From IMG/VR virus record IMGVR_UViG_3300032269_000703, positions 1-64,000 of that record: 64,000 bases of DNA. One strand, given 5' to 3'. The notes beneath the pieces are model-generated. The model was given only the letters and a program-made list of their open reading frames with translations. It searched no databases and was not told where the DNA came from. Positions 5,393 through 25,845 of the stretch are shown here, piece by piece. Position numbers and translations under genes: made by a program. The DNA is from a virus. Taxonomy: Duplodnaviria > Caudoviricetes. Positions within the stretch are counted from its first letter, which is position 1. The number at the start of each line of letters is the position of its first letter.

Positions 5393-5401
5393 GGAGCCAA
5401 G

Positions 5402-5824: not shown

Positions 5825-6036
5825 TGGCAGTTAACAGCAGTCGTTCAATGAACGCAAGCCTAGGCGAAGGATCAACTGACGGAAAATACCGTAAAATTCG
5901 CCCAGACACCGAAGTATCTGATATACTAGGTAATGAAAAGACTCTAGACAACAGACAGACCCTACACCCATTTTATGGGTATGGATTTGTTACCACTGAA
6001 TACCCAGACGCAGAGAAAGTAAATCCAGGTAAATAA
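5824..6036 (+). CDS. Hypothetical protein
   Basis: 70-aa coupled ORF. Confidence 0.5.
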   Translation: MAVNSSRSMNASLGEGSTDGKYRKIRPDTEVSDILGNEKTLDNRQTLHPFYGYGFVTTEYPDAEKVNPGK

Positions 6037-6038
6037 TT

Positions 6039-6317
6039 ATGCCAAAAGCAAAGCTAACTAAAGGTTTGGTTCGTAAAGCAACTAAACTAAACAAAGAAAT
6101 CTCAAAAAGCGAACTAAGAAAAGCAGGTGCTAACCAGGGTACCGTTAATGCAGGTCTTGGCGGTCGAAACGTTGCAAAAACAAAGCCTATTCGCGACAAG
6201 GTAGCATATGGAGTTGCAAAAGCAACTTCCGGAGCAACAGCAGCCGGAATTTCACCTAAAAAATCTGCAAAAATTGTTAAGTCAGCCTCTAACTACGCAT
6301 TTAAAAAATCCCAGTAA
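6039..6317 (+). CDS. Small Lys/Ala-rich basic protein
   Basis: Highly basic 92 aa, similar in composition to the 61288 and 62177 ORFs. Confidence 0.55.
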   Translation: MPKAKLTKGLVRKATKLNKEISKSELRKAGANQGTVNAGLGGRNVAKTKPIRDKVAYGVAKATSGATAAGISPKKSAKIVKSASNYAFKKSQ

Positions 6318-6356
6318 TATTACCAGATCTACTTAATCATTAATAAGGAATAATAA

Positions 6357-6920
6357 ATGGCAGAAGCACCACTAATTGGATCACGCGACTTACAACATAA
6401 AGGTCCTTTAATTCGCCTACTTCGTTGTATGGTGTGTAATAGCTGGGAAGAGCTACCAGACTGGGATGGCGCAGTAGAAGAAGATTTTCTACTAGAAGTC
6501 ACTATAGAAAAACACAAGTTCCCTTCAGGCGAACCACACAAAGGTAAGCTATTTAAGATTCCTATGTCATACTGGGCTGATCGTGAAAAGCGCAAAGCTG
6601 TACTAGACCAACTAGGTGGCGGTGGTTCACTAGGTCTAGACGCATTTGACCCAGATAAGTCATTCTACGACAGCAAGATGCAATTCTCAGAAGATGCAAT
6701 GACATGCTGGAAATCCAAGCTAAAGCCTACAGATGGTTGTGCCGAATATGGTTCAGCCGAAAAGCGTATTCTACCTAAGACAGCAGTAGAACGTAAAGAA
6801 CTAGGATTACCTAGCCCAGCAGATGCTCCAGGTCCAAAGATTTATATCTGTAATTTTTGCCCTATGCACTCAGTTATCACAACCAAGAATCGTCAGAAAC
6901 AAGGAATGTACGATAAGTAA
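6357..6920 (+). CDS. Hypothetical Cys/His-containing (zinc-binding) protein
   Basis: CMVC, H..H and CNFCPMH motifs; AAGGA RBS. Confidence 0.55.
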   Translation: MAEAPLIGSRDLQHKGPLIRLLRCMVCNSWEELPDWDGAVEEDFLLEVTIEKHKFPSGEPHKGKLFKIPMSYWADREKRKAVLDQLGGGGSLGLDAFDPDKSFYDSKMQFSEDAMTCWKSKLKPTDGCAEYGSAEKRILPKTAVERKELGLPSPADAPGPKIYICNFCPMHSVITTKNRQKQGMYDK

Positions 6921-7051
6921 TGGCAAAAGGCAAATCAGCACCAGCACCAGTTGTAAAAAGTGGTAGCGGTCGTAACAATGGTAAGGCGTCTAAAAAGCGC
7001 CCTAAAGTATTCGACGCAGTAAAGCGTCGTTTAGTAAACAAGGAGAAATAA
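6920..7051 (+). CDS. Small basic protein (43 aa, not in ORF track)
   Basis: MAKGKSAPAPVVKSGSGRNNGKASKKRPKVFDAVKRRLVNKEK fills the gap between coupled genes. Confidence 0.55.
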   Translation: MAKGKSAPAPVVKSGSGRNNGKASKKRPKVFDAVKRRLVNKEK

Positions 7052-7336
7052 ATGGATACCTATTTCGTAGTAACAATCAACTCAGATGGTACTTTTGAGA
7101 TGCACTCAGAACTACCAGAAAACCTAGAAAAAAGCCACGAGATCACTATTTCTGAGATCTACACTGTAGTCAAGCAGATTGTACAGAACGTAGAAGCACA
7201 GATGGTAGCAGATCGCGTTACAAATGCAGTTTTGTCCGCTCTAGCACCGCAGGTTGAGCAGACTGTACCCGACAAGGTAAAAGAAAAGCTAAAAGAACGC
7301 GGAATTAAGACCGATTCTAGCGAGGAGACAGCGTAG
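7052..7336 (+). CDS. Hypothetical protein
   Basis: 94 aa, AAGGAG RBS. Confidence 0.55.
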   Translation: MDTYFVVTINSDGTFEMHSELPENLEKSHEITISEIYTVVKQIVQNVEAQMVADRVTNAVLSALAPQVEQTVPDKVKEKLKERGIKTDSSEETA

Positions 7337-7345
7337 AATAGTCTT

Positions 7346-8233
7346 ATGACTATTAACGCTAGACCTACCTCGTATTTCAGCGTGCCCAGTCCTACCCTGG
7401 ATCCTAAACTATTTCAGGGTAGGACTTTGCATTCTGGCGTTAGATCAGAAATTACTGCTATTTTAGATAAGTATCTAAATACTAAGTACAACCATCCTGA
7501 AATCTGGTCACATGCATGGTTAGCAGGGTCAGGTGTTTCATTCCAATGGCAAGCCAATAGGCAGCCAGGTGATTTGGATTGTTTAGTAGGCGTAGACTTC
7601 CCACAGTTTAGACGTGCCAACCCATCATACCAAGGTCTGTCAGATTCAGAGATCAGTTCTGAAATCAATGAAGGATTTAAGTCAGAACTAGACCTACAGA
7701 CCAACAACTGGAATGGGTACGAGCTAACATTTTATGTTAACCCATCAGCTACAGATATTAAAACTATTCGTCCTTATGCAGCGTATGACCTAAAGTATGA
7801 CGAGTGGACAGTTACACCAGACCCACAAATGCAGCCGCCTCATAATCTGGAATGGGAGAAGGTAGTTGCCGAAGATTCAAATAAAGCCACCCAAATTCAT
7901 ACACGCGTTACAGCTGCAATTAACGAAATCCAGATGTCAACTAATCCAGCAGTAAAAAGAAATGCTGAGCTAAAGGCAGTTAGTGCAGGACAGCAAGGAT
8001 TAGCACTATTTAATGAGATCCACTCTAATCGTAGCCAAGCGTTTAGCCCAAGTGGTAAGGGGTATGCAGATTTCAATAATTACCGCTGGCAAGCAGGTAA
8101 ACGCGAAGGCACAGTACAAAAACTAAAAGGTATCAGCAAATACCTATCAGGACTATCATCAACAAGTTATGGTGTAGAGCTGCCAGATGCAGCCACCCTA
8201 ATTCGTAGATCCGCAGTATATAGGAGTCAATAA
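7346..8233 (+). CDS. Pol-beta superfamily nucleotidyltransferase-like protein
   Basis: LAGSGVS...GDLDCLVGVD (hG[GS]x9-13DhDh) with a later acidic residue in YELTFY. Confidence 0.65.
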   Translation: MTINARPTSYFSVPSPTLDPKLFQGRTLHSGVRSEITAILDKYLNTKYNHPEIWSHAWLAGSGVSFQWQANRQPGDLDCLVGVDFPQFRRANPSYQGLSDSEISSEINEGFKSELDLQTNNWNGYELTFYVNPSATDIKTIRPYAAYDLKYDEWTVTPDPQMQPPHNLEWEKVVAEDSNKATQIHTRVTAAINEIQMSTNPAVKRNAELKAVSAGQQGLALFNEIHSNRSQAFSPSGKGYADFNNYRWQAGKREGTVQKLKGISKYLSGLSSTSYGVELPDAATLIRRSAVYRSQ

Positions 8234-8664
8234 TGTCTGATGAAAACATTGGAAAACAATTTAAAGGAATTGCAGGAAACTTACTGCTTTCTGATGCGTC
8301 AGATAGCCTAGAACAAATGAAAAATATTGTAAGACCGTACTCTGACAAAGTATTTGCAGACAATATGATGTCAGACAAAGATCAACTTCGTCATCCAGCT
8401 ATTTATGCCCATAATGAGTTGTACTTTGCTGGACTGTCATTAGCATCAGCAACTAATCATCACAATTACAATGATTGGGTAGATGCAGTTCCTGAACTAA
8501 TGAAATCTAGTGCAAGAGTGATCAACGCAGCCACAGGTCTAATAGGAGATGCAGGCAAACTACCATTAGATAGCGATCATCAAGCAGAGTTTAAAAACCA
8601 TTTTGATAATTTCCACTCAAAATTAAATGATTACGTTAACTTATATGGAGATTTAGAAAGATAG
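8233..8664 (+). CDS. Helical His-rich hypothetical protein with NIGKQF leader
   Basis: N-terminus MSDENIGKQF. Confidence 0.55.
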   Translation: MSDENIGKQFKGIAGNLLLSDASDSLEQMKNIVRPYSDKVFADNMMSDKDQLRHPAIYAHNELYFAGLSLASATNHHNYNDWVDAVPELMKSSARVINAATGLIGDAGKLPLDSDHQAEFKNHFDNFHSKLNDYVNLYGDLER

Positions 8665-8763
8665 CCGTGTCATTAAAAGATACATGCCACAAATGTAGTC
8701 ATGAATTACTAGCAGGAATGTGCACAGAAGATTATTGTAAGTGTGATTGTTTAGGAGACGATT

Positions 8764-9267
8764 ATGAATAATAAACCAGAAGAACAACCAGAAGAAAACC
8801 CTAATATAGGCAAGCAGTTTGAGGAAATCATGGGTCAAAATATTTCTCCTAAAGAGGAACAAGACATGAAAATAAGAGCCCACGTAGATAATATATGGGA
8901 AATTCTAGGTGGTACAAATGATCCAGAAGAACAGCATGATCGGGACTACAAGCTACGTCGTCAAAGAATGGTAAACTTTCCCGACAATATGGTAAAAGAA
9001 GATGAAGATGGGCTACCACAAGTCGTTTACCACACCAAAGATAAATTAGGAAGAGAATGGAAGCATACCTGGAACGGATTTGCTTACATTGATCACCACC
9101 ATCCAAAGTATGGTCCAATTGAAGTAAGTAATTTGCATGACTATTCATTAAATTGGGGCGAGCAACCATACGAAAAAGGTCTATTTACTCCTCATGAGTT
9201 TTTACAGCACGTTAATTCGTTTACTGAAACAGCCCATGAAAATTATAAGGATGAAGATCTAAGATAA
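8764..9267 (+). CDS. Hypothetical protein with NIGKQF leader
   Basis: N-terminal ENPNIGKQF; AGGAG RBS. Confidence 0.55.
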   Translation: MNNKPEEQPEENPNIGKQFEEIMGQNISPKEEQDMKIRAHVDNIWEILGGTNDPEEQHDRDYKLRRQRMVNFPDNMVKEDEDGLPQVVYHTKDKLGREWKHTWNGFAYIDHHHPKYGPIEVSNLHDYSLNWGEQPYEKGLFTPHEFLQHVNSFTETAHENYKDEDLR

Positions 9268-9270
9268 CCA

Positions 9271-9756
9271 ATGAGAATATTAGTAGAAATAGATGGTGTA
9301 CTAAAAGATAGGAAAGACGGTGTTATTGCCACCGGATTTTTAATGTATGGACCATTAACAGCATATAATCAAGTTGTTTTAATGACAGAAATGACGCAAG
9401 CTGAAGCTGAGCGTTGGCTGAATGTAAATAAGATTGTAGACTATGATCTGCTAATTGACAAGTCAGTTCATCTAGAAACAGAAAATTTACAAGAACGTCA
9501 GATACAAGTAGCCCGTTCTCGTGGTAATATAGACTTATTCATAACTAGTAACCCTAAGTTATGGGTGTACGCATTTGATCAAGGTATTCCTAGCGTAATG
9601 TTTGGAGTACCTCAGTATTTACGTGCTGATTTTAGACCTGATGCACCAAAAAAGATTAGATCCTGGGATCAAATACAAGAAGCAGTAGAAAAACAGAACA
9701 TTTTAAAGACAAAAGACGCAAGATTACAACGGACTGAAGGACTAAACTTTGAGTAA
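9271..9756 (+). CDS. HAD-like fold protein, probably catalytically atypical
   Basis: MRILVEIDGVL resembles HAD motif I (DxDGxL) with the first Asp replaced by Glu. Confidence 0.5.
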   Translation: MRILVEIDGVLKDRKDGVIATGFLMYGPLTAYNQVVLMTEMTQAEAERWLNVNKIVDYDLLIDKSVHLETENLQERQIQVARSRGNIDLFITSNPKLWVYAFDQGIPSVMFGVPQYLRADFRPDAPKKIRSWDQIQEAVEKQNILKTKDARLQRTEGLNFE

Positions 9757-10096
9757 ATTACCTGTCACAATTAAAGTGGGTACTCAAGACTGGACTATTG
9801 TAGAGCACACGTCTAAAGAAGACGGTATGTTGTACGAAGATAACTATGGGTACACCCTAGAGCGCCGTAATATGATTGTCATAGATAAAGATGCGTCAGA
9901 TAGTCGTAAAAAGCAAGTCCTAATACACGAGATCTTGCACGCCATCAGGTTTACTTTTTTTACAGGTAATAAAATGGCACCAAAGCTAAGTTTTGAAGAC
10001 ACAGAACACTATTTCATTGGTATGTACGAAGAGACATTACTGATGGTTTTACAAGACAATCCACCACTCGTAGAATACTTATTGGATAAAAAATGA
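9749..10096 (+). CDS. HExxH zinc metallopeptidase-like protein
   Basis: YGYT...IVID...VLIHEILHAI...EHY. Confidence 0.65.
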   Translation: MSKLPVTIKVGTQDWTIVEHTSKEDGMLYEDNYGYTLERRNMIVIDKDASDSRKKQVLIHEILHAIRFTFFTGNKMAPKLSFEDTEHYFIGMYEETLLMVLQDNPPLVEYLLDKK

Positions 10097-11592
10097 TCAT
10101 ATTTGGTGGTGTAGAAATACCCTCAAATCGTACCCTTCTAGAACGTTCTGGTGTTACAAACGTAATGCTGAATTATTGGGGGCTACGCAAGCGTGGGCTA
10201 CCTAAAAACAAGACCTATTTAATAGGCGAGCATTTCCTACCTGAAACAAAAGTATGGGTAGATTCTGGAGCTGTCCAAGCAGATAAAGCCAATCTTTCAC
10301 GTCAAGAACTAGAGCAATACGCAGCTGATTATGAAGAGTTTATTGCTAACAACTATGATCGTATTGAAGGATTTACAGAATTTGACAGCCAAGTTCTGGG
10401 ATTGCCTACAATCATTAAGAATAGAGCCGTTTACCAAGGCGATCCTAAACTATGGGTAGTATGGCACGAAACCTATAAAACCTTTGTTTTAGAAGAATGG
10501 GCAAAAGAGCATTCTAACATAGCCATTCCTGGTACCGAAATCGAGGCTGTAACGTCGCTAGCCGCCATTACAAGAAGATTACAGCAAATGTATCAGGTTT
10601 CATTCCACGCCCTTGCTACGGTCAAACCAGACAATTTACGGCAGATACCATTTGTCACAGCTAGCACACTATCCTGGTTAACTCCAATGAGAAGAGGCGA
10701 GACAATCGTTTGGGATGGTAGTAAACTAGTTAGATATCCTAAAAATATGAAGAGCCAAGCCAGAATACGATACAAAAACGTCGTAGAAAAGGCAGGTTTA
10801 GATTTTAAAAAGTTTGTAGAAGATGACACATTAGAAGCCACCAAAGTCGCAATTTGGTCGTATTTACAGTTAGAGAAAACAATGGACAAAGAAAAACCCG
10901 ATCTAAAAGTTATTAAAGGTGGACAACAAGACCCGCTACTATCTGATAACAGTGATGATACTCTATACACCGGTTTGATGCAAATGGGTGGGTATGGTTC
11001 TAATAACAGTGATGAAATAGATCTCAAAAAAGAGCGTACTGAAGTGGTACAAAGAGACCCTTCTGAGGTAGTTTCTATGCCTGTTTTTGGGTATGAGTAC
11101 AAGACTGTAATAGAGACTGAAAACGGCATAGATGTACTAAAAGATGTGCCAGTTGTTAAGTCAAATAGTAGCAGTTTAAGACAGTGCAACACCTGTTTTG
11201 TTGCTGCAAATTGCCCTGCATTTAAGCCCGATAACACCTGTGCATTTAACCTGCCAGTAGAGGTAAAAACCAAGGATCAACTGAAATCATTACTTACCGC
11301 AGTTATTGAAATGCAGGGTCAGAGAGTAGCATTTATGCGGTTTGCAGAGGAATTAAACGGTGGTTATGCAGATCCAAACGTGTCACAAGAAGTAGACCGT
11401 TTAATGAAGTTGGTTAAGTCTATGAAGGAACTTGACGAGAATAAAGAGTTTGTCAGGATTACTGCTGAACGCTCCTCTAGTGGGGGTGTATTGTCAGCTA
11501 TTTTTGGTGACCGCGCACAGGCACTTAGAGAGATGTCAAACCCTCTAAATCCAGATCAAACTAACAAGATTATACGGGATTCAATAGAATAA
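10093..11592 (+). CDS. TGT/DpdA-like TIM-barrel domain fused to a C-terminal Cys-cluster/helical domain
   Basis: VWVDSGA motif, VVWH, FHAL and TLSWL elements as in phage TGT-like proteins; C-terminal CNTCFVAANCPAFKPDNTC. Confidence 0.5.
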   Translation: MIIFGGVEIPSNRTLLERSGVTNVMLNYWGLRKRGLPKNKTYLIGEHFLPETKVWVDSGAVQADKANLSRQELEQYAADYEEFIANNYDRIEGFTEFDSQVLGLPTIIKNRAVYQGDPKLWVVWHETYKTFVLEEWAKEHSNIAIPGTEIEAVTSLAAITRRLQQMYQVSFHALATVKPDNLRQIPFVTASTLSWLTPMRRGETIVWDGSKLVRYPKNMKSQARIRYKNVVEKAGLDFKKFVEDDTLEATKVAIWSYLQLEKTMDKEKPDLKVIKGGQQDPLLSDNSDDTLYTGLMQMGGYGSNNSDEIDLKKERTEVVQRDPSEVVSMPVFGYEYKTVIETENGIDVLKDVPVVKSNSSSLRQCNTCFVAANCPAFKPDNTCAFNLPVEVKTKDQLKSLLTAVIEMQGQRVAFMRFAEELNGGYADPNVSQEVDRLMKLVKSMKELDENKEFVRITAERSSSGGVLSAIFGDRAQALREMSNPLNPDQTNKIIRDSIE

Positions 11593-14005: not shown

Positions 14006-14548
14006 CTATATTGTAGGGATAACCCTTATAAACCTTATTTGACCAGATGAGTAATCTGTCAAAGGTTGGATTATCGTAGATTGTGCTCCACGATGCGCGT
14101 TGATTATCTTGCCATTACCAATATAAATAGCAGAATGGTAGAAGCTGGTAGATCCTTTATAAGCAAATACTACAATGTCTCCTAGTTTAGGTGTGTGAAC
14201 ACGCTTACCTATGTGACCTTGCTTGTTTGCGGAGTGTGGTAATTCCATACCAAATTTTTGGTATGTCCAGCGGACTAATCCTGAGCAATCCCATCCACGA
14301 GGACTTGCTCCAGAAAACACATAAGTAGTTCTTCCTACCCTGGTTTTCAAATAGTTTATTACTTTTTTCATTTGAGCAGTATTACGCTGTAGTTTTGCAA
14401 ATCTTATTAAATCTGCTTTTACATCATTTGTTGATACTACTTGTTCTTTTGCTACAGCATTAGGAATACCAAAAGCTGTTGCAGTTGAAGCAGAACATCC
14501 AGCAAGACTTAGAATTATGCCGGCTATTACTATCTTCTTGTTCATCAT
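14006..14548 (-). CDS. NlpC/P60 (C40) cell-wall peptidase with signal peptide
   Basis: YVFSGASPRGWDCSGLVRW, GDIVVF, HSAIYIGNGKIINAH; N-terminal signal with LAGC lipobox-like motif; GGAGG RBS. Confidence 0.9.
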   Translation of the reverse strand: MMNKKIVIAGIILSLAGCSASTATAFGIPNAVAKEQVVSTNDVKADLIRFAKLQRNTAQMKKVINYLKTRVGRTTYVFSGASPRGWDCSGLVRWTYQKFGMELPHSANKQGHIGKRVHTPKLGDIVVFAYKGSTSFYHSAIYIGNGKIINAHRGAQSTIIQPLTDYSSGQIRFIRVIPTI

Positions 14549-15714: not shown

Positions 15715-15869
15715 TAGTTATCCTTATCCTTTGGCATAGACCAAACTTTCTTTATTTCATTTAGCCTGCCCCTAAGAACGGCTAAAGCTGTTTCTTGTGC
15801 GCCTTCTGCATAACCGATGTCCTGTTTAAGATCAGCGATTACTAACTCATACGCTTTTGTTAGTTCCAT
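15714..15869 (-). CDS. Small hypothetical protein (51 aa)
   Basis: MELTKAYELVIADLKQDIG...; coupled. Confidence 0.5.
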   Translation of the reverse strand: MELTKAYELVIADLKQDIGYAEGAQETALAVLRGRLNEIKKVWSMPKDKDN

Positions 15870-16363
15870 TAGTTATTTTCCTTATTTTCGATTACCCATA
15901 AGTATTCATAGGTAGGTGGTTGTGAGCCTGTATCTTCTGCCCATTGAAACTGACTATACCATTCATAGTATTTTGATAGTAATGCTGTCCGGTGTGTCGT
16001 AGCAACTTCTTCAACAATACAAGGTGGATAGACAAGTTTATTCGAGACCCTGCCTTTCATTACTGCTGTTGTAAAAGTAGTGCGAGCTTTGTCGTCAATA
16101 GTCGTGTTGTAGCCCCTGGAACGCCATTCATCACACATAGCAATAATGTAATGAAGTAGTGCTGTTTCATAGCCACGCCACATCTTTACCGCAGGATGGT
16201 TTGCCCAGCCTTTAGGAATGCGATCATTGCCCAAAGGATCTAGTTCGGTAAGCGTCATAAGGATCTGCCACCCTTCTAACGCTTGTTTGTTTAGGCGCTT
16301 GTTGTCTAGCGTTTTAGCGATCTCACTAAAGTTAGTTGTCGCTATTGGTATAAATGTCTGCAT
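15869..16363 (-). CDS. Pyrimidine-dimer DNA glycosylase / MSMEG_6728 family
   Basis: MQTFIP...LDNKRLNKQALEGWQIL...WANHPAVKMWRGYE...HRTALLSK...YLW. Confidence 0.8.
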   Translation of the reverse strand: MQTFIPIATTNFSEIAKTLDNKRLNKQALEGWQILMTLTELDPLGNDRIPKGWANHPAVKMWRGYETALLHYIIAMCDEWRSRGYNTTIDDKARTTFTTAVMKGRVSNKLVYPPCIVEEVATTHRTALLSKYYEWYSQFQWAEDTGSQPPTYEYLWVIENKENN

Positions 16364-16500
16364 TAGTTTTCCACTATCCAAGAGTCTATCTCAATAAACT
16401 CAACATCAGGAGAGTTTGATTCTAATTTGAACATTGCTTCATCTTCATTTGAAGCTTCAACAACAAACTTTTCTCCAACTAGAATTGTGTATTTTGGCAT
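16363..16500 (-). CDS. Small acidic protein (45 aa)
   Basis: MPKYTILVGEKFVVEASNEDEA...; coupled. Confidence 0.5.
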   Translation of the reverse strand: MPKYTILVGEKFVVEASNEDEAMFKLESNSPDVEFIEIDSWIVEN

Positions 16501-16736: not shown

Positions 16737-16951
16737 TAGTTATCTTCCTTTGTGGTATCCTTTGTGGTCTTGCTTGTGGTCTTGCTTGCTATTTCTGCTA
16801 AGACTTCGTGTAGTGCTTTTGCTACTGCCATTTCGTCTTTTACTACTGCTTCGTTGAACTTTTCTGTGATCATAATAAAGATCTCGCCACGCTCAATGGC
16901 TTTGCCCATTTCGCTTGACTTGTCTATTAGATTTTCTATTTCTTTCTGCAT
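16736..16951 (-). CDS. Hypothetical protein
   Basis: 71 aa, coupled. Confidence 0.5.
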   Translation of the reverse strand: MQKEIENLIDKSSEMGKAIERGEIFIMITEKFNEAVVKDEMAVAKALHEVLAEIASKTTSKTTKDTTKEDN

Positions 16952-16952
16952 T

Positions 16953-17150
16953 TTATTTCTTTCTCTTTATTGGTTTGGCTTCTGCTTGTGCTTCGGCTTC
17001 TGGTCTTGCTTCTGGTATTGCTTCTGCTTTGGCTTCTGCTTTGGCTTCTGCTTTACACTCACATTCACAAATCGCTATGGTTTGTCCTGTGTTGATTTTT
17101 ATCCTACACCCTTCGTGGTGTCTTGTGATACACCAGCCACATTTCAACAT
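16953..17150 (-). CDS. Small Cys/His protein with AEAK-repeat tail
   Basis: CGWC...HHEGC...CECEC; AAGGA RBS. Confidence 0.5.
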   Translation of the reverse strand: MLKCGWCITRHHEGCRIKINTGQTIAICECECKAEAKAEAKAEAIPEARPEAEAQAEAKPIKRKK

Positions 17151-17172
17151 AAGTGTTATCCTTTTGTTATCT

Positions 17173-17316
17173 TTCTGGTATTGCTTTGGCTTTTGGTCTT
17201 GCTTCTGGTATTGCTTCTGGTTTGGCTTCTGGTATTGCTTTGGCTTTTGGTCTTGCTTCTGGTATTGCTTCTGGTTTGGCTTCTGGTATTGCTTTGGCTT
17301 TTGGTCTTGCTTCTGG
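17173..17316. repeat. 54-bp tandem repeat, about 2.7 copies
   Basis: Unit TTCTGGTATTGCTTTGGCTTTTGGTCTTGCTTCTGGTATTGCTTCTGGTTTGGC starts at 17173, 17227 and 17281. Confidence 0.9.
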
Positions 17317-17409
17317 CTTTGCTTTGCTTTTTTATCTTCGCTTTGGCTTTGGCTTTTGTTTCCTCGCTAAAAATCATTTCTTTTTCCTCGCTAAAACTGA
17401 TGGCTTTTG

Positions 17410-17664
17410 CTATGGCTTTGCTTTAGCTTTGTCCTGGCTTTGCGCTTCTAGGATCTGTATTGCTTTGCTGATGTCTTGTAGAGCGCTAGTGATTACGGCT
17501 TTGCTGGCAGCGTCAATACTAACTTCAACGGGTTTGCCGTCATCTCCTTTGGCTATGCCTGTCTTTAGTAGTAGCAACTTGCCTAGTGCTGTTTTTAGCA
17601 TTTGGCGTGTCTGCTCACTTTGGATCTGTTTGTTCTGCTTCTGTGTGCCGGTGGATCTGCTCAT
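17410..17664 (-). CDS. Hypothetical protein
   Basis: 84-aa ORF. Confidence 0.45.
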   Translation of the reverse strand: MSRSTGTQKQNKQIQSEQTRQMLKTALGKLLLLKTGIAKGDDGKPVEVSIDAASKAVITSALQDISKAIQILEAQSQDKAKAKP

Positions 17665-17752
17665 TTATGTTCCCGATTATTTTTGCCGATAATAATTATT
17701 ATGTAAAGTTGATTTCAAGTAAAAAAAATAATTAGATCTGGGGGTAGCCGGT

Positions 17753-18103
17753 TTAGGCTACTCCCTGATCTAACTGCTGCCTGGTTTCTTGATCTAGCTC
17801 TTGTGCGATCCTGGCATACTTAGCAACGCTTAGTAAATACTCTGCCAATTCTCGATCATTATTTACTAACTGGATTAGATCCAAAATAGGTCTGCTTCTG
17901 CGCTGGTTTCGCCTAACATACACTCTTACTGGCAGATCTGGGTCTGTTCCACGCTTCTTTCTTTGAGCAACTAGAACTCTTGCCTTTACGCACTCCCGAC
18001 ATCTGCTCGTTCCACCTATAAAATACCTAGAATTAGGCAAGGTTAGATCGTGTCCCCTTTTACATTCTTTCAAGCGTGGCTTATTCATTAGTGGCAACTC
18101 CAT
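17753..18103 (-). CDS. Zinc-finger protein (CKRGH...CREC module seen beside phage HNH domains)
   Basis: ECKRGHDLT...SRCREC; the true start may be 18088 (MNKP). Confidence 0.55.
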   Translation of the reverse strand: MELPLMNKPRLKECKRGHDLTLPNSRYFIGGTSRCRECVKARVLVAQRKKRGTDPDLPVRVYVRRNQRRSRPILDLIQLVNNDRELAEYLLSVAKYARIAQELDQETRQQLDQGVA

Positions 18104-18413
18104 CTCGAAGCAAGGTGAGAATGGCTAGATAACGCTCATTATCGGTATCTCGCAACTTGATTATTGCTTCTGCCATTCGCCGAGCTGTCCTGACCTTGTG
18201 GATCGTTCTCTTGGTTTCTGGGTTGGTTTTCTTGCCTAGCCAAACTCTTACATCTTTGGTTTTATAGACATACCTGCTGCCTATTTTTACTGGATCACTA
18301 GGCGTTGAGATTTTGAGCCAGGAATAGATCGTTGGCAAGGTCTTATCTGCCATTATTGCGATCTGCTTAGGCGTGAGTAGTTGCTCGTCTGTGAAGTTCG
18401 GTTTAGTTTCCAT
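18081..18413 (-). CDS. MerR/excisionase-like HTH DNA-binding protein
   Basis: LLTPKQIAIMADKTLPTIYSWL...PVKIGSRYVYKTKDVRVWL. Confidence 0.7.
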   Translation of the reverse strand: METKPNFTDEQLLTPKQIAIMADKTLPTIYSWLKISTPSDPVKIGSRYVYKTKDVRVWLGKKTNPETKRTIHKVRTARRMAEAIIKLRDTDNERYLAILTLLRDGVATNE

Positions 18414-19155
18414 TGTTCCTTTTCTCTCGATCTAACTCTACTGCGAGAGCTTTATTTTCTGCCTGTAATGCGAACATACTCTCCATAAGGGTTTCAAGTA
18501 GATCTATGCCTACTTGTGCTGATCCTGAAACCTTGACTTCATAAACATTTGGATCATCATTGAAACTAAACCCACTTGCCACGAAGTCCGGATAGTCTAT
18601 TTTGCCAAACTCGACACGAATGTTGGTTGAAATAGTGAGAGCGTCTGGTTCTCCACCACCATACCAATTTGGTCTGCTGTCGTTTCCTTTCCACTCTGCG
18701 AACTTAGCCATAAAGTCCTGTATTGCTTTTTCCTTAGTTTTTAGATTTAGCTGGTGAGTGGTTTCCTGTGTGCGCCTGATCTTGTCTATCTTGCTCTGTA
18801 ATAGGTGGATCTCTTTTTCTATAAGTGCTTGCTTACCCCAAACCTTTTGATAGTCGCTATAAAGCCCTTTGATCCACCTGGTAGGAACTATGGCGTAATG
18901 CTCGTTAGAGCCGTCTAGGTCGGTTATTTTGGCTAATAGCCCTGATCCTGATCCAGCGCCTAGATTTGTTTGTTGTTTTGCTAACGATACTGGATCTAGC
19001 GCATTACCAAACCACCTAATCGGCTGGTATCGGTTGGTATCAACTAGAACTGCTTTCTTTGCCCAGCGTGGATTTGGATCTCCACTATAACTAGCCATAA
19101 CGAACTCGGCTGTTGGATCTGCCGTTGCTGCTTTTTTGATTTTGTTGTATTCCAT
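18403..19155 (-). CDS. Hypothetical protein
   Basis: 250 aa, AAGGA RBS. Confidence 0.6.
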   Translation of the reverse strand: MEYNKIKKAATADPTAEFVMASYSGDPNPRWAKKAVLVDTNRYQPIRWFGNALDPVSLAKQQTNLGAGSGSGLLAKITDLDGSNEHYAIVPTRWIKGLYSDYQKVWGKQALIEKEIHLLQSKIDKIRRTQETTHQLNLKTKEKAIQDFMAKFAEWKGNDSRPNWYGGGEPDALTISTNIRVEFGKIDYPDFVASGFSFNDDPNVYEVKVSGSAQVGIDLLETLMESMFALQAENKALAVELDREKRNNGN

Positions 19156-19166
19156 AGCTCTTTTCC

Positions 19167-21113
19167 TTACTTTGTTAGGTGTTTGGCGATAGCCATTTTG
19201 ACGATAGATTTTGCTAACCCGATCAAGTGGTCGGGGTGCTGAATGTGTGCCGAGATCATACTTTCGTGGCTTGTTTTTGGATCAAGATCATTACCGATAA
19301 GCGCTAGTGCTGTGATAACTCCTGAACTGCCTAATGTCGAAATGATTTGATCTGCGTTATCACTCTCTATTCCCCATTCGCCGTCTGTAATGGTGAATAG
19401 GATTTTTACATTCCTGCGTGAGTTGGCGAATACGCTCTGCGAATAGAGCAACGCTTCTACTGGATCAGTTCCCCCGTCTGCGCCAGCATCTCGAAGCTCA
19501 CTCTTTACCCTGTCTTGTGGTTCGTAAAGCATTTCGGCATAAGTGTTGTAAGTGATAACGGAACAATTAGCGCCGATAGCCTGTAAGCCCTGCTTGATCG
19601 CAAACATAGACTTATAGGCGCTTACTGCCTTAGATCCAGACATAGACCCGGAGTTGTCTAACAAGATTACGGCTTCGAGATCCGTTGCTTCATCTTGTCC
19701 GTCATACCATTCGTCAAATGTGGTTTCTATGTCCTTTTCGGTTAGGTATCTGCTGGCGTTGATTTTTCCACTATCTAGGCGTGTTCGCCAGTTAGGTTCG
19801 AGATCAGTTCTAATGCGTTCTAGTTCAATTCCAAACTGCTTACCTGCCGCAAGTGTTCGGGTATCTACTTGCCTAGTGGTGTATCTAGCTCGTTTTGGTC
19901 TATCAACCTTTATGTCCTGTAAAGATAGATCATTCTTGAAGTCCCGAATGTCCTTAGTGATTTCGGTTTTTACTTTTTCGAGATCTTTCTGCCATTGGTC
20001 AAGAATGGTGTCTTTCAACATTGGATCTAAATACTTTGGATCGTGTTTTGAAGCGCCATTTGTATCATCTTTATTTGGATCTGGATCTCCCTTGTCCTGA
20101 TCCTTTTTGTTGCTCTTTTGTGAGTTTGGGGTTTGTCCCTGTTTCTGTCCCTGCCCTTGTTCCTGCTCTGGTGTAGGTGTAGGCGAAGTTGGCATAGGGA
20201 ACTTACAACCTGTTTGGTTTTGTGGTTCTGGTTCTGGCTGATCGCCTGGCTTCGGTGGTGCGCTCTGGTTAGTTCCCTTAGTGTTTGTTTCATTACGCTT
20301 GGTTGCGCCGTTTTTAGCGTGTTCCTGATCCTTTATTGGTAGTGGTCGGCTGGCACTAGGTTCTAGTTCATCACTAGGTCTAGTTTCGTGTCCGTTAGGT
20401 GTTGGGATTTTGCCGCAACCTGTTCCAGTTTTCATTTCGCCTAATAGCTCTTGAAGTCTGCGAAGTATGTCTAATGCTCGAAGTATGGTTTGATCGTCAT
20501 TCCATACCATTACTCGGTATTCGTCTAGTAGTGCCTGGATCTCGTCTATGTGTTGTGGTTGAGCATAAACATCTTGAAGCGCCTGTCTAACTGCTACTGG
20601 TAGATACTTGCGACCTGCGACCACCGGAAATTGTGTTGATAGATCGAGATCAGGTGTGAGCAAGTGTCTAAACACGCTGGCATTGAGCCACGCTGTAATG
20701 TTTGTGCCGAACCTGCCGATCAGTAGTGTTTCAATTCGGCTATCTTCTGCTATCGAATACGCTTCCGTAAGGTTTTCTTTGTTGATAATTCTCTTGAATG
20801 ATGATCCATTCCTAGCGCTAAATAGAATGTGGCAGATTTCGTGAAGTGTAAGTCCTTTGAGCGCCATAGCTTTTTTAGGATCAGTAATGTCTGTTAGGTG
20901 ATTAGCTGAATACACGATAGTTCTGCTTGTTGCGACTACTGGGGCAACGCCGAATGGCACGACTAGGCAATTTACGCTTCTAAGCGTGATTACGCTGGCG
21001 TATTTGCTGAATACCTGACTAACTCTCTCTATGCGATCTAACGCTTTCTGCTGTTCTGTTCTGGCGTGGATAGTCCATTTCACGCTGTCTTGATCATCTG
21101 GCAATAACATCAT
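19167..21113 (-). CDS. CobT-like protein: HExxH domain, low-complexity linker, C-terminal vWA domain
   Basis: LHEICH and AEDSRIE; MIDAS motif LLDNSGSM...GGT...ITDGE. Confidence 0.85.
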   Translation of the reverse strand: MMLLPDDQDSVKWTIHARTEQQKALDRIERVSQVFSKYASVITLRSVNCLVVPFGVAPVVATSRTIVYSANHLTDITDPKKAMALKGLTLHEICHILFSARNGSSFKRIINKENLTEAYSIAEDSRIETLLIGRFGTNITAWLNASVFRHLLTPDLDLSTQFPVVAGRKYLPVAVRQALQDVYAQPQHIDEIQALLDEYRVMVWNDDQTILRALDILRRLQELLGEMKTGTGCGKIPTPNGHETRPSDELEPSASRPLPIKDQEHAKNGATKRNETNTKGTNQSAPPKPGDQPEPEPQNQTGCKFPMPTSPTPTPEQEQGQGQKQGQTPNSQKSNKKDQDKGDPDPNKDDTNGASKHDPKYLDPMLKDTILDQWQKDLEKVKTEITKDIRDFKNDLSLQDIKVDRPKRARYTTRQVDTRTLAAGKQFGIELERIRTDLEPNWRTRLDSGKINASRYLTEKDIETTFDEWYDGQDEATDLEAVILLDNSGSMSGSKAVSAYKSMFAIKQGLQAIGANCSVITYNTYAEMLYEPQDRVKSELRDAGADGGTDPVEALLYSQSVFANSRRNVKILFTITDGEWGIESDNADQIISTLGSSGVITALALIGNDLDPKTSHESMISAHIQHPDHLIGLAKSIVKMAIAKHLTK

Positions 21114-21171
21114 TTTTGTTTTCCTGTTCTATGACTTGTTTTGGTTGTAAATAAATTGGATCAGGGCAAGT

Positions 21172-21197
21172 AAAGGGGAATGTTGCCATTCCCCTTT
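21172..21197 (-). terminator. Hairpin / putative terminator between AAA and vWA genes
   Basis: AAAGGGGAATG-TTGC-CATTCCCCTTT. Confidence 0.55.
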
Positions 21198-21228
21198 TCC
21201 TGCTCTCTCTGCTCGGTGTTGGGCAGAA

Positions 21229-22119
21229 TTAGACTTCGTAATCGCCTAGTTCGATTTCTAGTTCATCACTAATGCGCTGTGAGTAAGTCGCAAGCAACAT
21301 AGATACGCTCTGGCGTTCATCTGTCGGGAAGTTTTGAACGAAGTTATAGACGGCGAACCTGAAACTTAGTCCCTTAGCCGTCTGGACAAACTCCTTGATC
21401 AAGCGTGTTGAAATTGGTGTGCTGAACTTGTTTTCGTTGCGAGCAAGCTCTCTCATAGCCTTAGCCAGTTCAAGCAAACTATCACTTGGAATAAAGTTGC
21501 GCTCTAAGATCTCGTCATACTCGAACTCGACCTTTATTGCGTATCTGTCCATAAACGCTTGATCAGGCTTGATTACGCCACGATAATCAAGGTTGGCATC
21601 AGCAATAATCAGGCAGTTTTTATGAACCTTGATTTTCTCGTTTAGGTGTGTGTCCAGCGTGAGTTCTCTCTCTTGGAGAATACGCAGGAATAGAGCATTA
21701 GCCTTAGCGCTCATTCGGGTTGCTTCGTTCAATAGAACTACGCTCTCCTGACCTAGTGCTGTTGCGAGTTCGCTGTTGTGCCAGGCTAGTTGATCACCTT
21801 GTCCAGTTGGCACGAAACCACCTTGAACAATACGAGAGTTCATCTCGGCATTACATTCGACAATAGCTAGTGGTAGTCCCCTAGTTGCTGAATACCACTC
21901 TGCCGTGCTGCTTTTTCCTGTTCCTGCTTCACCAGTAATCATTACGGCTTTTTGATTAGCCCTTGCGTAATCAAGAATGACCCCGATCTGCTGACCTTCG
22001 ATTTCTCTTGGAAAATGTCCTGCCACTTCCGGATCTGTCGGCTGTGGTCGGCGTAGAGTTGCCCATTCCTTACCTGTAAAGGTCGGTGTAAGTGGCTCTA
22101 ACTGGATTTGAATTGCCAT
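21229..22119 (-). CDS. MoxR/CobS/NorQ-type AAA+ ATPase
   Basis: Walker A GEAGTGKS, Walker B VLLNE, and DQAFMDRY and ISTR motifs; partner of the vWA gene. Confidence 0.85.
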   Translation of the reverse strand: MAIQIQLEPLTPTFTGKEWATLRRPQPTDPEVAGHFPREIEGQQIGVILDYARANQKAVMITGEAGTGKSSTAEWYSATRGLPLAIVECNAEMNSRIVQGGFVPTGQGDQLAWHNSELATALGQESVVLLNEATRMSAKANALFLRILQERELTLDTHLNEKIKVHKNCLIIADANLDYRGVIKPDQAFMDRYAIKVEFEYDEILERNFIPSDSLLELAKAMRELARNENKFSTPISTRLIKEFVQTAKGLSFRFAVYNFVQNFPTDERQSVSMLLATYSQRISDELEIELGDYEV

Positions 22120-22163
22120 TGGCGTTATTCCTTAGTTCTAATTGGATAACTAACTTTTGTTAG

Positions 22164-22213
22164 TCGTGAGTAGTCGGGAATTGAACCCGAATAACTGCCC
22201 CCAGGCACTACCC
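22164..22213 (-). ncRNA. Miniature tRNA-like RNA (acceptor stem plus T-arm, no anticodon arm)
   Basis: GGGTAGT/ACTACTC acceptor stem; TCGGG-TTCAATT-CCCGA T-arm; small GCC-TGGG-GGC hairpin; 3' ACGA. Confidence 0.6.
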
Positions 22214-22223
22214 TTTTTTGGAT

Positions 22224-22952
22224 CTAGCAACACTCACATTCGGCGCAAGTGTCGCAATAGGCGTGTGGTGGATAGCTACATTCATCAGGATCATCACAAG
22301 GTTCATCAAGATCATCTAAATCGTAATGAACATAATTACATTGGCAACTATCACCACAACAAGCCGAGCAACTATCGCAAACACATTCGAGCTGATCTCT
22401 AAACGAATTGGCAAGCGATTTGATCTGCTGGCTATCTCTCATTAGGTCGGCGAGAAATTGTTGCTGTTCGTTTAGTGCCGATCTGTCGAACTGCCGCATT
22501 TGAACCCACTCCAACGCCTTTACTGGAACATAGTGAGCGCAAGAAAACACTTTGGCATAGAGTTCTGGCAATTGGATCAGGTAGCGCACAAAATTATTGA
22601 AACCCCACGCCCACTTCTCTACCACTTCAAGTTCGATCAGGCTGTTTCGATTAGCACTTGGCGCATAAGTAATAATTGCGCCTATCTGGTCGTAGTGTTC
22701 CTTGATCCCAACTAACGCAAATGCGAAATACCTATTACTCAATAAATAGGTATTCTCTGGCGCTTCACTTTTAGCTAACTGGATCAGGTATTCGGTCTGG
22801 CTCTGTAAGTGATCTAATGTTCTCGCAGTTAGAGAATTGACCATTTCAGCGCCATTCGATAACCCTGCCTGATAGAAATACTTGCTCTGTTGTTCAGTAA
22901 GAAGTTCGGTGTTTTCTCGAACATACGCTAGATCATCATCAGCCATACCCAT
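22224..22952 (-). CDS. Hypothetical protein with Cys-rich, acidic C-terminus
   Basis: About 14 Cys in the last 55 aa; GGGAG RBS. Confidence 0.55.
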   Translation of the reverse strand: MGMADDDLAYVRENTELLTEQQSKYFYQAGLSNGAEMVNSLTARTLDHLQSQTEYLIQLAKSEAPENTYLLSNRYFAFALVGIKEHYDQIGAIITYAPSANRNSLIELEVVEKWAWGFNNFVRYLIQLPELYAKVFSCAHYVPVKALEWVQMRQFDRSALNEQQQFLADLMRDSQQIKSLANSFRDQLECVCDSCSACCGDSCQCNYVHYDLDDLDEPCDDPDECSYPPHAYCDTCAECECC

Positions 22953-22971
22953 TTTTTACTCCCTGCTGCTT

Positions 22972-23364
22972 TTAGTGGTCGTGATCGCAGTTATCATCAT
23001 CATCATCATCACAAGATCCGTCTTGTTTGGCTAGATCGTGAAGTTCGCCGAGCTTAGATTTGATCCCTAACAGAACATCTTGTTTCTGCTTCCAATCTTT
23101 CAACTCGTTTGGATCTTTCTCCATTAGTAATGCCATAGCGCACATCTGGAATAACATTCGATTTGCCGAATTGAGAGCGTGAAGTTCCTCGTGAGATAGC
23201 GACATAGGGAACTCTCTAAGGTTGCCAGCGCCGTCTTTTTCCATACCTGCTTCTCTCGCTTCTTTTTCCTGTCGTTCCTGTTCCTGTTGGATCAGTTTGG
23301 CAAGTTCAGCGTTTAGGAATTGTAGATCGCCGTCTGTCTGCTTCTGTTCTGGTTGCTCGTTCAT
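22972..23364 (-). CDS. Hypothetical acidic protein
   Basis: Likely start MNEQP at 23364, coupled to the upstream stop. Confidence 0.5.
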   Translation of the reverse strand: MNEQPEQKQTDGDLQFLNAELAKLIQQEQERQEKEAREAGMEKDGAGNLREFPMSLSHEELHALNSANRMLFQMCAMALLMEKDPNELKDWKQKQDVLLGIKSKLGELHDLAKQDGSCDDDDDDNCDHDH

Positions 23365-23870
23365 TACTCCCACTCCCCAGCCCACTCGTCATTACGGATC
23401 ATTTGCTCGTTGATCTGTGTTGGCATAGGCATTGAACCGGAGATAGCCCAGTTCTCGTTCAGTTGGTCGTAATCGTGATCAGCAAGGTTATCCAGATCAG
23501 CAAGGGGACAGAACTCACTCTCGCACTCGTGATCTAACGCTTGGTTTCTGTGGCGCTCAATAGCTCGAAACTCCACAACTACCCTTGCCAGGATCATCTC
23601 TGCTGTCTTGCGAATGGTGTCTGTGCCTAGCTCTGCCAGAATGTCGTTGCCAGCAAGGTTTTCCATTCGATCCAGAATGTCGGCGATCCTGTAAGCGGCT
23701 AATTCTTGAACTTCTCTTGCTTCGTGGCAGGTTGGTTCGCCGAACTCTGCTGTTTGCTCATTCAGGTAATCAGTTTTTAGATCGCACATTAGCAATAAGT
23801 TCCCTGAACTGGTCGGGTATTCATTATCCAAATACTCGGTTATTGTTTCGTAGCCCTGTCGGTCTATCAT
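23364..23870 (-). CDS. Hypothetical acidic protein
   Basis: 168 aa, AGGAG RBS. Confidence 0.55.
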   Translation of the reverse strand: MIDRQGYETITEYLDNEYPTSSGNLLLMCDLKTDYLNEQTAEFGEPTCHEAREVQELAAYRIADILDRMENLAGNDILAELGTDTIRKTAEMILARVVVEFRAIERHRNQALDHECESEFCPLADLDNLADHDYDQLNENWAISGSMPMPTQINEQMIRNDEWAGEWE

Positions 23871-24086
23871 TTTCTATCACTCCTAATCGGGTTGAGTTCT
23901 CGGCAGGTTTGCCGATTAGTAAGACACTAAAACACGCTAGGGACATTTAGGCAGGGTTTCTCTGGATCTGGCAGGTGTTTATTTATAGTTTCTATCTCTG
24001 CGCTTCTACAAGCCAATAAATAGCGTTTTAGCCCTGATCTGGATCTAAGTGCTGCGAAGCTCTGGCAGATCACCAACTCCGGGTAT

Positions 24087-24132
24087 AAAAAAGCCCCTTG
24101 CCTACTAATTAGGGGAATAGGCAAGGGGACTT
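24087..24132 (-). terminator. Intrinsic terminator (minus strand)
   Basis: CCCCTTGCCTA/TAGGCAAGGGG stem with an A6 run on the left (U-tract on the minus strand). Confidence 0.75.
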
Positions 24133-24206
24133 CAAGTAGTAGTCGAATGTGTCGTTATCTGCTCATAGGCACTCGTTTCTGTTGATGGACAAGGATCAGT
24201 ATAGGA

Positions 24207-24554
24207 CTAACTGCCGAGATCAGGAATAAGGTCGAGATCCTGCTCGTCTAGCAAATGGACAAAATGATCTAGCCAGCGTATAGCGTGGATCGGGTTATCG
24301 GCGAACACTACTAACGCTTTACCTAGTAGATCCAACTCCAAATACCCTAAGTTCTCTGGTGGAACATAGTCATAAGGTAGAAGCCCTTGTTGATCGTGAT
24401 AGTTGATCAGGTAGATAAAGCCGTGTAATGGACTAGCGCTGTTCGGCGTAGCTGTGTGGTGTTCGTATAGGCGAGCAAGTGGCGCAAGCGCTAGTGGCGT
24501 TTCAGTTAGGAAATCATCTAAATCGTCAAATTGAGCAAACATCTTTATTTCCAC
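24207..24554 (-). CDS. Hypothetical protein
   Basis: 115 aa. Confidence 0.5.
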   Translation of the reverse strand: MEIKMFAQFDDLDDFLTETPLALAPLARLYEHHTATPNSASPLHGFIYLINYHDQQGLLPYDYVPPENLGYLELDLLGKALVVFADNPIHAIRWLDHFVHLLDEQDLDLIPDLGS

Positions 24555-24769
24555 TTCTTACCGAGAGCAACCAACATAACATTCGGCGAAACTCGCAAAA
24601 TACGGCATAGATCAGCAAGCGTGTCTGCTGGTATCTCTCGTTGCTGGTGGAAATACCTAGACAAACTCGACTTCTGGAAGCCTGTGTATAGGCAGAACTG
24701 ATTTAGGGACTTGAAGCCCTGTTTCTGGTAGCGATCTACGAACCAAGCGTAAGTTTGATCAGGTTTCAT
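24545..24769 (-). CDS. XRE-family HTH protein
   Basis: SLNQFCLYTGFQKSSLSRYF...EIPADTLADLCRILRVSP; probable start MKPDQ. Confidence 0.7.
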   Translation of the reverse strand: MKPDQTYAWFVDRYQKQGFKSLNQFCLYTGFQKSSLSRYFHQQREIPADTLADLCRILRVSPNVMLVALGKKWK

Positions 24770-25116
24770 CTCTGGCAACCACACTCTCGGCTCTTGAAGG
24801 TATCGAGAAGCGCCCATTCGTTCAGGCGAAGCGTGAATAGGAACTGGCGATCAGTATCTAGGTTTCGCACCTGGAAGCAACTCCAAATGAGCTGTTCGCC
24901 TTGCTGGAATGACCAGACAACACTCACGATCTCTAATGTTGCGCCGTTCTTCATTACGCTATCGCCAACAACTAGGTTGTGCGCTTGTCTTGCTATGTAT
25001 CGGGAATGAGCGTGATCCCCGACATTTGGATCTAATAGTTTCACTTGAAACTCCTTGATTAGTTGGAATACCTGCCAAGTGGCAAGTGGATAAATACTAA
25101 CTCCAAATAGGCACAA
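24766..25116 (-). CDS. Hypothetical protein (start uncertain)
   Basis: ORF; AAGGAG before VKLLDP suggests an internal GTG start. Confidence 0.4.
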   Translation of the reverse strand: MCLFGVSIYPLATWQVFQLIKEFQVKLLDPNVGDHAHSRYIARQAHNLVVGDSVMKNGATLEIVSVVWSFQQGEQLIWSCFQVRNLDTDRQFLFTLRLNEWALLDTFKSRECGCQR

Positions 25117-25203
25117 AACACCACAATTCGCAGCAACACTCCAAGCTCACACCAGCAACAGAATAAAAATAAAACGCCAAGTATGAAGTCCCCTAGACAT
25201 AGA

Positions 25204-25733
25204 GATCCAGATAGAGAGAGAGAGATAACACTCAATAGATCCAGATCCAGATCTAAACCAAACTCCGGGCATTAGATCACACCAACACCGGAGATCCTGG
25301 CACTAAACCTGATCCAACTGAGAGCTGATCTAAATAGCCTGGAACACCGGAGATCGGCAGCAATAGTTCGAGATCCACTCGCCCAGGCACTAGCTATGGA
25401 TCTAATACCTGATAACGGCAACCCTGATCTAACGCTGACCTGATCACACTAGCCGTCAAGCCCTAGTGATCATTCGGCAGTAGCCTAAACGGCTCGTAGA
25501 AGCCCTTATTTGCCTAACCCTAACTATCTATCCATTCCCCTATTCAAGCCCTACACGACCCCGTAGAAGCCGTATTTGACCATAGAGCAGATAAACGGCG
25601 TGTCTAACCCCTAAATAGCCGTAGATCCGTATAATCCACGATCTCGGCGTGTCGCAATTTGACTATTTAGATCCATAGAGCTAAACTACGCCATCACCAG
25701 ATCTAAGCGTTATCAAATAGTTATGTAGAGATC
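25204..25733. repeat. Noncoding block with a dense GATC cluster
   Basis: 19 GATC counted in about 530 bp (14 within 25204-25471); AACACCGGAGATC occurs twice. Confidence 0.8.
25645..25687 (+). promoter_or_regulatory. Sigma70/SigA-type promoter 1 with upstream CGGCGTGTCG box
   Basis: TTGACT (25659) - 17 bp - TAAACT (25682). Confidence 0.6.
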
Positions 25734-25773
25734 GGCGTGTCGATTTGACTAATGCCACCGGTTATGGTAAGGT
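25733..25773 (+). promoter_or_regulatory. Sigma70/SigA-type promoter 2 with upstream CGGCGTGTCG box
   Basis: TTGACT (25745) - 17 bp - TAAGGT (25768), with a TGn extended -10. Confidence 0.6.
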
Positions 25774-25845
25774 GCGAGCAGGTCTGCCCAGGAGAAATCC
25801 ACGCTTGGTACCCATAAAGTTAGGCAGTAGCCTATAATGAGCTTT

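Follow-up and report, generated by a model that had tools for sequence, protein, structure and literature searches.

An 8.4-kb stretch of an uncultured phage genome (17.4-25.8 kb) was found to carry 128 copies of GATC (15.2/kb), compared with 292 copies (3.5/kb) in the other 84.6 kb, and this stretch coincides exactly with a minus-strand operon and its upstream spacer. It lies inside a block from which most other short palindromes have been eliminated. The substitutions that created the sites point to natural selection as the builder of the excess. As the best single reading, which is held tentatively, we propose that this selected, block-wide excess lies in the DNA first exposed to the host and reflects a protective self mark on GATC. 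By this reading GATC probably helps the phage here rather than exposing it.

The window analyzed, 64,000 nucleotides in length, covers positions 1 to 64,000 of a 93,035-bp IMG/VR virus record which is rated complete. Nearly all genes of this ~93-kb phage run rightward, the exception being a minus-strand module at 14.0-25.1 kb, and genes for terminase, portal, major head protein, ribonucleotide reductase and a DpdA-like transglycosylase were recognized. No close phages were found in GenBank. The 123-bp terminal repeat of the record has the appearance of an overlap from circular assembly, and the contigs of relatives end at differing places. The phage encodes a WhiB gene, which suggests an actinobacterial host, and its genome matches, only ~40% identical, were in metagenome-assembled genomes of Acidimicrobiia and other Actinomycetota; the host is therefore probably an actinobacterium (Actinomycetota). 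The original prediction had proposed a search of the rest of the genome for a Dam-like methyltransferase, and none was found in the phage with the four Pfam families PF02086, PF05869, PF01555 and PF00145 (D12, Dam, N6/N4 and C5).

The recognized functions in the block were limited to a Cro/C1-type HTH regulator, an AAA_5 ATPase, a VWA protein and a small HNH-like ORF, and the remaining genes were orphans for which nothing was found at relaxed thresholds in Pfam, NCBIfam and PDB. The VWA gene gave tblastn matches to CobT-like genes of Gordonia phages. The ATPase gene was the most conserved gene of the block and contained six GATC, compared with one in relatives. Palindrome avoidance fades toward the distal end of the minus-strand module, which encodes a pyrimidine-dimer DNA glycosylase (15869-16381, PF03013) and an NlpC/P60 peptidase (14006-14548). 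The coordinates of the features are collected in Table 1.

Table 1. Features in and around the GATC-rich block (positions in the window)
Feature	Position	Strand	Basis or content
DpdA-like guanine transglycosylase gene	10093..11592	+	phrog_887 at 1e-63; outside the block
Restriction-purged block	16947..25808	.	eight 4-bp palindromes, five XYNY'X' words and most 6-bp palindromes absent
Minus-strand operon	17400..25116	-	13 genes, 105-109 GATC, every gene enriched
Small HNH-like ORF	17753..18103	-	7 GATC in 351 bp; phrog_826 at 8e-7, residues 9-56
VWA (CobT-like) protein gene	19167..21113	-	28 GATC; PF13519 at 8e-9
MoxR/CobS-like AAA_5 ATPase	21229..22119	-	PF07728 at 1.5e-13, phrog_249 at 7e-28
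Cro/C1-type HTH regulator	24545..24817	-	PF13443 at 1e-4, phrog_2967 at 5e-6
Densest GATC array	25204..25471	.	14 sites in 268 bp, non-coding
Candidate leftward sigma-70-type promoter	25579..25606	-	TAGACA, 16-nt spacer, TATGGT; consensus match only
Five GATC among rightward-operon promoter elements	25624..25733	.	alignment with L003, L004 and L002
Promoter-like site	25659-25687	+	consensus scan

The GATC array was first noticed as 19 sites in about 530 noncoding bp, 14 of them in about 270 bp, and the exact counts were 19 in 25204-25733 (530 bp) and 14 in 25204-25471 (268 bp). For the whole ORF-free spacer (25117-25836, 720 bp), 2.6 GATC were expected from base composition and 3.7 ± 1.9 from an order-1 Markov model, with a maximum of 11 in 2000 runs. 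The 14-site array has the first gene of the leftward operon on one side and the divergent promoters on the other, and its sites are spaced by 6-34 bp. There is no tandem repeat in the array: only AGATCC, present three times at 25238-25253, is repeated, and the other sites stand in unrelated contexts. No longer motif or flank preference was found around the 4-mer, and no helical phasing of 10-11 bp was detected, the only periodicity being the 3-nt coding period. The region 25204-25733 is the non-coding peak of the larger 8.4-kb feature, in which no reading frame limits the density of sites.

The excess extended through the coding DNA as had been claimed for 17.4-25.1 kb. All 13 genes at 17410-25116 were enriched (6.7-20 GATC/kb per gene), and together they contained 105 GATC compared with 62.8 ± 5.0 (z = 8.4) in synonymous-codon shuffles, which preserve each protein and its codon usage. 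When the shuffles were barred from creating 12 purged words, 66.5 ± 5.3 GATC were expected (z = 7.3), and with 30 forbidden words 65.3 ± 3.6 (z = 11), so that avoidance of other words adds only ~3 GATC. The whole window contained 323 GATC compared with 165 ± 12 in dinucleotide shuffles. The sites of the operon fell in all three codon frames (63/10/32), which together with the lack of flank preference indicated that the relevant unit is the 4-mer alone, as DNA. The gaps between sites were slightly more even than random (CV 0.83 vs 0.98, P ~0.02), and the longest gap was 238 bp vs 350 bp by chance.

Several simple causes could be set aside on these controls. Neither local composition nor a repeat expansion accounts for the GATC frequency (z = 7-11), and copies of one unit do not explain the count. 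Codon usage and amino-acid content were ruled out by the synonymous shuffles and by the non-coding DNA being densest. A by-product of purging other words was ruled out by the constrained shuffles and by relatives which share the purge and have few GATC. Protection of overlapping TaqI-type sites was rejected, since only 5 of 32 TCGA overlap a GATC. TCGA itself occurs at expectation inside the block, its apparent excess reflecting avoidance by the bulk genome, and GCGC is mildly enriched (z ~3). A minor second cluster of 10-11 GATC in ~1 kb lies outside the window at 66000-67100, inside ordinary coding DNA and without palindrome avoidance.

The elimination of other palindromes, likewise part of the original prediction, was complete for many words. 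ACGT, ATAT, CATG, CGCG, GGCC, TGCA and TTAA are each at zero in the purged stretch and GTAC first appears at 25808; seven of these eight 4-mers, all absent from the 8.4 kb, have 60-542 copies elsewhere, and the eighth, GGCC, occurs once genome-wide. The interrupted words ACNGT, GANTC, GGNCC, GTNAC and TCNGA are also at zero, as are most 6-bp palindromes, and CCTC/GAGG and CCGC/GCGG are nearly absent. The right edge of the purge is sharp, at 25808 just before the first rightward gene, and the GATC excess ends at the same edge near 25.8 kb; the left edge fades from 17.4 to 16 kb. The purge is confined to 9% of the genome. GATC and TCGA, the two GA-containing 4-bp palindromes, are both retained. 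Among hexamers that contain GATC, AGATCT (7) and TGATCA (9) are present, and GGATCC is at zero, compared with ~7 expected from the 34 GGATC and 27 GATCC among the 128 sites. As a separate observation, the single GGCC in 93 kb compares with ~132 expected. The bulk genome is depleted in TCGA, CGCG and CpG generally and the block is not (CpG odds ratio 0.64 in the bulk vs 0.89 in the block), by which the two compartments avoid different word sets.

Six syntenic relatives were recovered with the AAA_5 ATPase (83-84% identity), one further end fragment through a conserved promoter word, and 20 more distant relatives (L013-L032), many from ~90-kb genomes, through a profile search. The relatives L002-L005, L007, L010 and L011 showed the same purge with the same sharp edge. 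The GATC excess is absent from them: the block of the close relatives contains 1.4-1.7 GATC/kb vs 2.0-3.7/kb in their flanks and is depleted relative to synonymous shuffles (z = -4 and -5), and 16 of the 20 distant loci have no GATC in 12-21 kb. The excess is a reversal confined to one lineage. Of the two parts of the original refuting condition, the lack of conservation in relatives thus holds, and an origin in composition or repeats does not. By these counts GATC is one of the main targets of restriction among these phages, and GATC-specific enzymes, hence methyltransferases, should be common in the hosts. In the ATPase gene of the relatives (L002-L005, L010) a lone GATC stands at the same Met-Asp-Arg codon pair in all five, and is lost in the phage of the window; the residual GATCs of depleted blocks may themselves be conserved.

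The flanking proteins of the relatives are mostly 80-98% identical (DpdA-like 88-95%, RNR 88-93%), whereas the block proteins are only 23-60% identical to those of the loci recovered with the ATPase, the ATPase (84%) being the exception. By these identities the block appears to be a hypervariable early module between conserved flanks. The GATC-rich lineage was met elsewhere in JGI, ENA and Logan data, as VWA homologues at least 90% identical on contigs of 87.5, 29.6, 23.2, 10.3 and 6.7 kb; the nearest other lineages are at 94% identity for the ATPase (P0001) and at 70-76% for the VWA protein (P0036-38).

The distant loci (L013-L032) display extreme and lineage-specific palindrome avoidance across their whole length. 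For instance, L032 has no AATT, AGCT, ATAT, CGCG, GATC or GGCC and almost no CCGG, GTAC or TTAA, and L030 has no ACGT, AGCT, ATAT, CCGG, CGCG, GATC, GCGC or TTAA. In the purged block of L026 (~1500-10000), CTAG was enriched (54 vs 31 expected, z = +6), and 7-9 CTAG lie in the homologous 537-bp divergent spacer upstream of that block (L026:1368-1904). A weaker CTAG excess was observed in L018 and L031. Enrichment of TCGA in L020 and L015 was accounted for by GC-rich codon usage.

The direction of change was read from alignments. In the codon alignment of the ATPase, the window has six GATC and the one of the relatives is at a different position; two of the six arose by synonymous GAC>GAT changes and four through the replacements S>Q, E>D, V/N>I and L>I. 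P0001 (94% identical) and eight other cluster members retain S, E and V, the ancestral residues, and the derived ones are shared only by the 87.5-kb sister contig. Four of the 18 amino-acid differences from P0001 fall in the 12 codons that overlap a GATC (odds ratio 9.6, P = 0.0035). The promoter spacer is 82% identical to L003, and there 2-3 base changes per site made GATC with the CGGCGTGTCG-TTGACT elements left intact. Substitutions so varied, multi-step and protein-altering argue for selection rather than a single mutational bias, and the claim that one palindrome is under positive selection inside a restriction-avoiding block, which is unusual, agrees with them and with the compositional controls.

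It is doubtful, at rather long odds, that the excess is non-adaptive, that is, that selection was relaxed after a host shift and biased repair or recombination, or hitch-hiking, then accumulated GATC without function. Such an origin would fit a trait that is limited to one lineage and switches among relatives, a block that appears hypervariable and in which recombination is probably frequent, and the inflation of methylated words by repair of the VSP type. However, relaxation would restore ~32 GATC by base composition or ~63-66 by codon usage, not 105-128. Against it also stand the many substitution types, often with two or three changes per site, the amino-acid replacements in a conserved ATPase, the bulk genome, which is not enriched (observed/expected 1.1), and the end of the excess at the purge edge inside sequence 82% identical to relatives.

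The spacer was examined for regulatory elements. The rightward promoter elements consist of CGGCGTGTCG boxes followed by TTGACT, conserved in L003, L004 and L002, with CGGCGTGTCG copies at 25644 and 25732 in the window. Between the conserved elements, GATC in the window replaces AAGT, AGGC, GCTA and ATAC of the relatives. Three copies of CGGCGTGTC(G/T) were also observed at 25595-25775. Two of them directly precede TTGACT hexamers that resemble a -35 box and are retained in relatives, and the copies probably serve the rightward early promoters as an operator or UP-like element. The first rightward ATG is closely preceded by a conserved TAGCCTATAAT, which suggests that the transcript is short or leaderless. 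On the other side, the candidate leftward promoter sits in a stretch which aligns well among relatives, and its position would place the 14-site array in a ~450-nt 5' leader, so that the array is probably part of the leader of the leftward operon. The leader RNA is not unusually stable (fold z = -1.2) and has no Rfam match. The relatives have no more than 2-3 GATC in the stretch homologous to the array, which in them contains CTAG and words of the CACCACAG type.

This setting recalls a local cis-acting element, in which the 14-site array would serve as a replication origin, as a pac site or as a regulatory region under methylation control, after the model of oriC/SeqA or P1 pac, with the coding excess unrelated. 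The density of 14 sites in 268 bp resembles that of oriC or P1 pac, and the surrounding region has divergent promoters and short, iteron-like repeats. We regard this reading as improbable. The excess continues through 7.7 kb of coding DNA, the sites lack phasing, the terminase gene is 21 kb away, the promoters are kept in relatives and the GATCs are not, and the leader is unremarkable in structure. Actinobacteria generally have neither Dam nor SeqA, and no Dam was found in this phage, whose WhiB gene points to an actinobacterial host. An origin or packaging site, as originally suggested, therefore fits poorly with the 8.4-kb extent, the lack of phasing, a terminase at 46.9 kb and the missing array in relatives.

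Known clusters read in connection with Dam methylation (E. coli oriC/SeqA, P1 pac and Dam-regulated promoters) share with the array a dense non-coding set of GATC near promoters. They differ in that the excess here covers 8.4 kb of mostly coding DNA and that the array is not conserved in relatives. Unlike oriC/SeqA, the phage has no detected Dam, a host that is probably an actinobacterium and no phasing. P1 pac consists of two clusters of TGATCA/G hexamers flanking the cut site near packaging genes, in a phage that has Dam, whereas here no flank preference exists, the terminase gene is at 46907-48487 and no Dam was found.

The DpdA-like gene raises another possibility, namely that its enzyme replaces G at GA steps with a 7-deazaguanine and shields GATC and TCGA on both strands, GATC being favored for raising the density of modification. 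The protein (499 aa, no Pfam match) is a possible 7-deazaguanine DNA modifier, and the retention of precisely the two GA-containing 4-bp palindromes would suit such a role. DpdA of the phages CAjan and iggy targets GA (PMC7544227, PMC10484667), and BamHI still cleaves dPreQ0 DNA, in keeping with the avoidance of GGATCC. Yet GANTC and GAGG, which contain GA as well, are purged, the fraction of G in a GA context is barely raised (0.29 vs 0.27), and TCGA is not above expectation. No preQ0-synthesis genes adjoin the DpdA-like gene, the FolE, QueD, QueE and QueC domains being absent from its six upstream neighbors by Pfam. The gene is also a core gene of the whole phage group (65-95% identity): all 13 records of relatives tested carry it at 65-76% identity with or without GATC, most of them having zero GATC, and the closest relatives, with 88-95% identical DpdA, deplete GATC. 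Its presence was thus rejected as a discriminator of GATC tolerance, it does not explain the GATC switch, and the explanation is weak and as improbable as the local element above.

A more serious competitor, still unlikely but ahead of the three readings above, is a binding or handling array, in which a protein that recognizes GATC as its core site would coat, condense, nick or help to draw in the block. Such a protein could be encoded by the phage (the HNH-like ORF or a co-injected protein) or be a host factor; SeqA, MutH and Dam are examples of proteins which read the bare GATC 4-mer. The excess suits an array of this kind in being region-wide, even and independent of flanks, with no gap above 238 bp. 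The HNH-like ORF is the only block gene without a counterpart in any relative locus, and among 5.8 billion proteins its homologues occurred only on contigs of the same lineage, so it is limited to the GATC-rich lineage. Against the array, the sites show no helical phasing, the remainder of the genome contains another 292 copies of the 4-bp site, and the match of the ORF to phrog_826 is both short and weak and is backed by neither Pfam nor PDB. Sporadic HNH genes are, moreover, common in phages.

A binding array and a protective mark are both viable and are the two leading readings, of which the mark is favored. Purging 9% of the genome would help only if the rest is protected later, and on this logic, which is that of T5, we infer that the 16.9-25.8 kb block is the DNA exposed in the cell before the anti-defence genes of the phage act. 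First-exposed status would explain why restriction words are purged only in the block. GATC in this lineage is evidently not cut by the current host. Under classical restriction-modification logic a protected site is neutral, and the excess of one palindrome needs a benefit that grows with the number of sites, either from a protective mark, whose benefit depends on a mark-reading defence, or from a GATC-reading protein. The virion DNA would most likely carry a protective self mark on GATC, which may be host methylation or phosphorothioation of GATC or, with less likelihood, 7-deazaguanine at the GA step introduced by the phage. More GATC in the exposed stretch would give more marks and better protection from defences that look for marks and not for a lack of bare sites, so that site avoidance would be mirrored. 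In favor of the mark count the match in extent between excess and purge, the slightly even spacing of the sites and the GATC-specific enzymes expected in the hosts; against it counts that no methyltransferase of the four Pfam families was found in the phage. GGATCC is still avoided in the block, and any mark on GATC would therefore fall short of a general shield. The CTAG enrichment of L026 parallels that of GATC with another word and fits host-specific marks.

The block can be compared with the first-step-transfer (FST) region of T5 and BF23 and the leading region of T7-like phages. The EcoRI sites of T5 are cut only in the FST region (10.1101/866236), and in Autographiviridae the leading region, which is hypervariable, alone decides Type I sensitivity (PMC12455610). 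Like these, the block is one bounded, site-free stretch with a sharp boundary, and the rest of the genome keeps its sites; its genes are probably early ones, and it appears hypervariable between relatives. It differs in the far broader purge (8 tetranucleotides, 5 interrupted words and most hexamers), and no homology to A1, A2 or dmp of T5 was seen in the phage. An over-represented palindrome in such a region is not described in 10.1101/866236 or PMC12455610, although it was not specifically searched for. The GATC excess would be a reversed-sign variant of leading-region restriction avoidance.

Palindrome avoidance in phages is the same selective arena: PMC6286503 reports too few GATC in every one of 46 phages with a host that encodes the matching enzymes, and relatives of the present phage go down to zero GATC, whereas here the sign is reversed to a four-fold excess. 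Dnd phosphorothioation (GpsATC, DndFGH) offers a pure analogy for the phage, GATC being a known motif of which more sites would give more marks; marking of GATC by Dnd systems can be merely partial, and against DndFGH the PT mark can be replaced by G6mATC (PMC6435447).

Word statistics of phages are usually read one way, with missing sites taken as restriction pressure. The present phage raises the prospect, which we put forward as a speculative extension of the self-mark reading, that enrichment is an anti-defence strategy by which a phage multiplies a host-modified motif in its first-entering DNA to pass as self. Such a strategy would use different words by lineage, GATC here and CTAG in relatives of the L026 type, and if it is true the switch from total avoidance to four-fold excess would track the defence repertoires of the hosts, and host modification motifs would be readable from phage genomes. 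If the excess stems from a protective mark or a protein-binding coat, it would represent a counter-defence of a new kind, at the level of sequence. The evolution of leading regions could be studied unusually clearly in this natural system, a group of ~90-kb freshwater actinophages.
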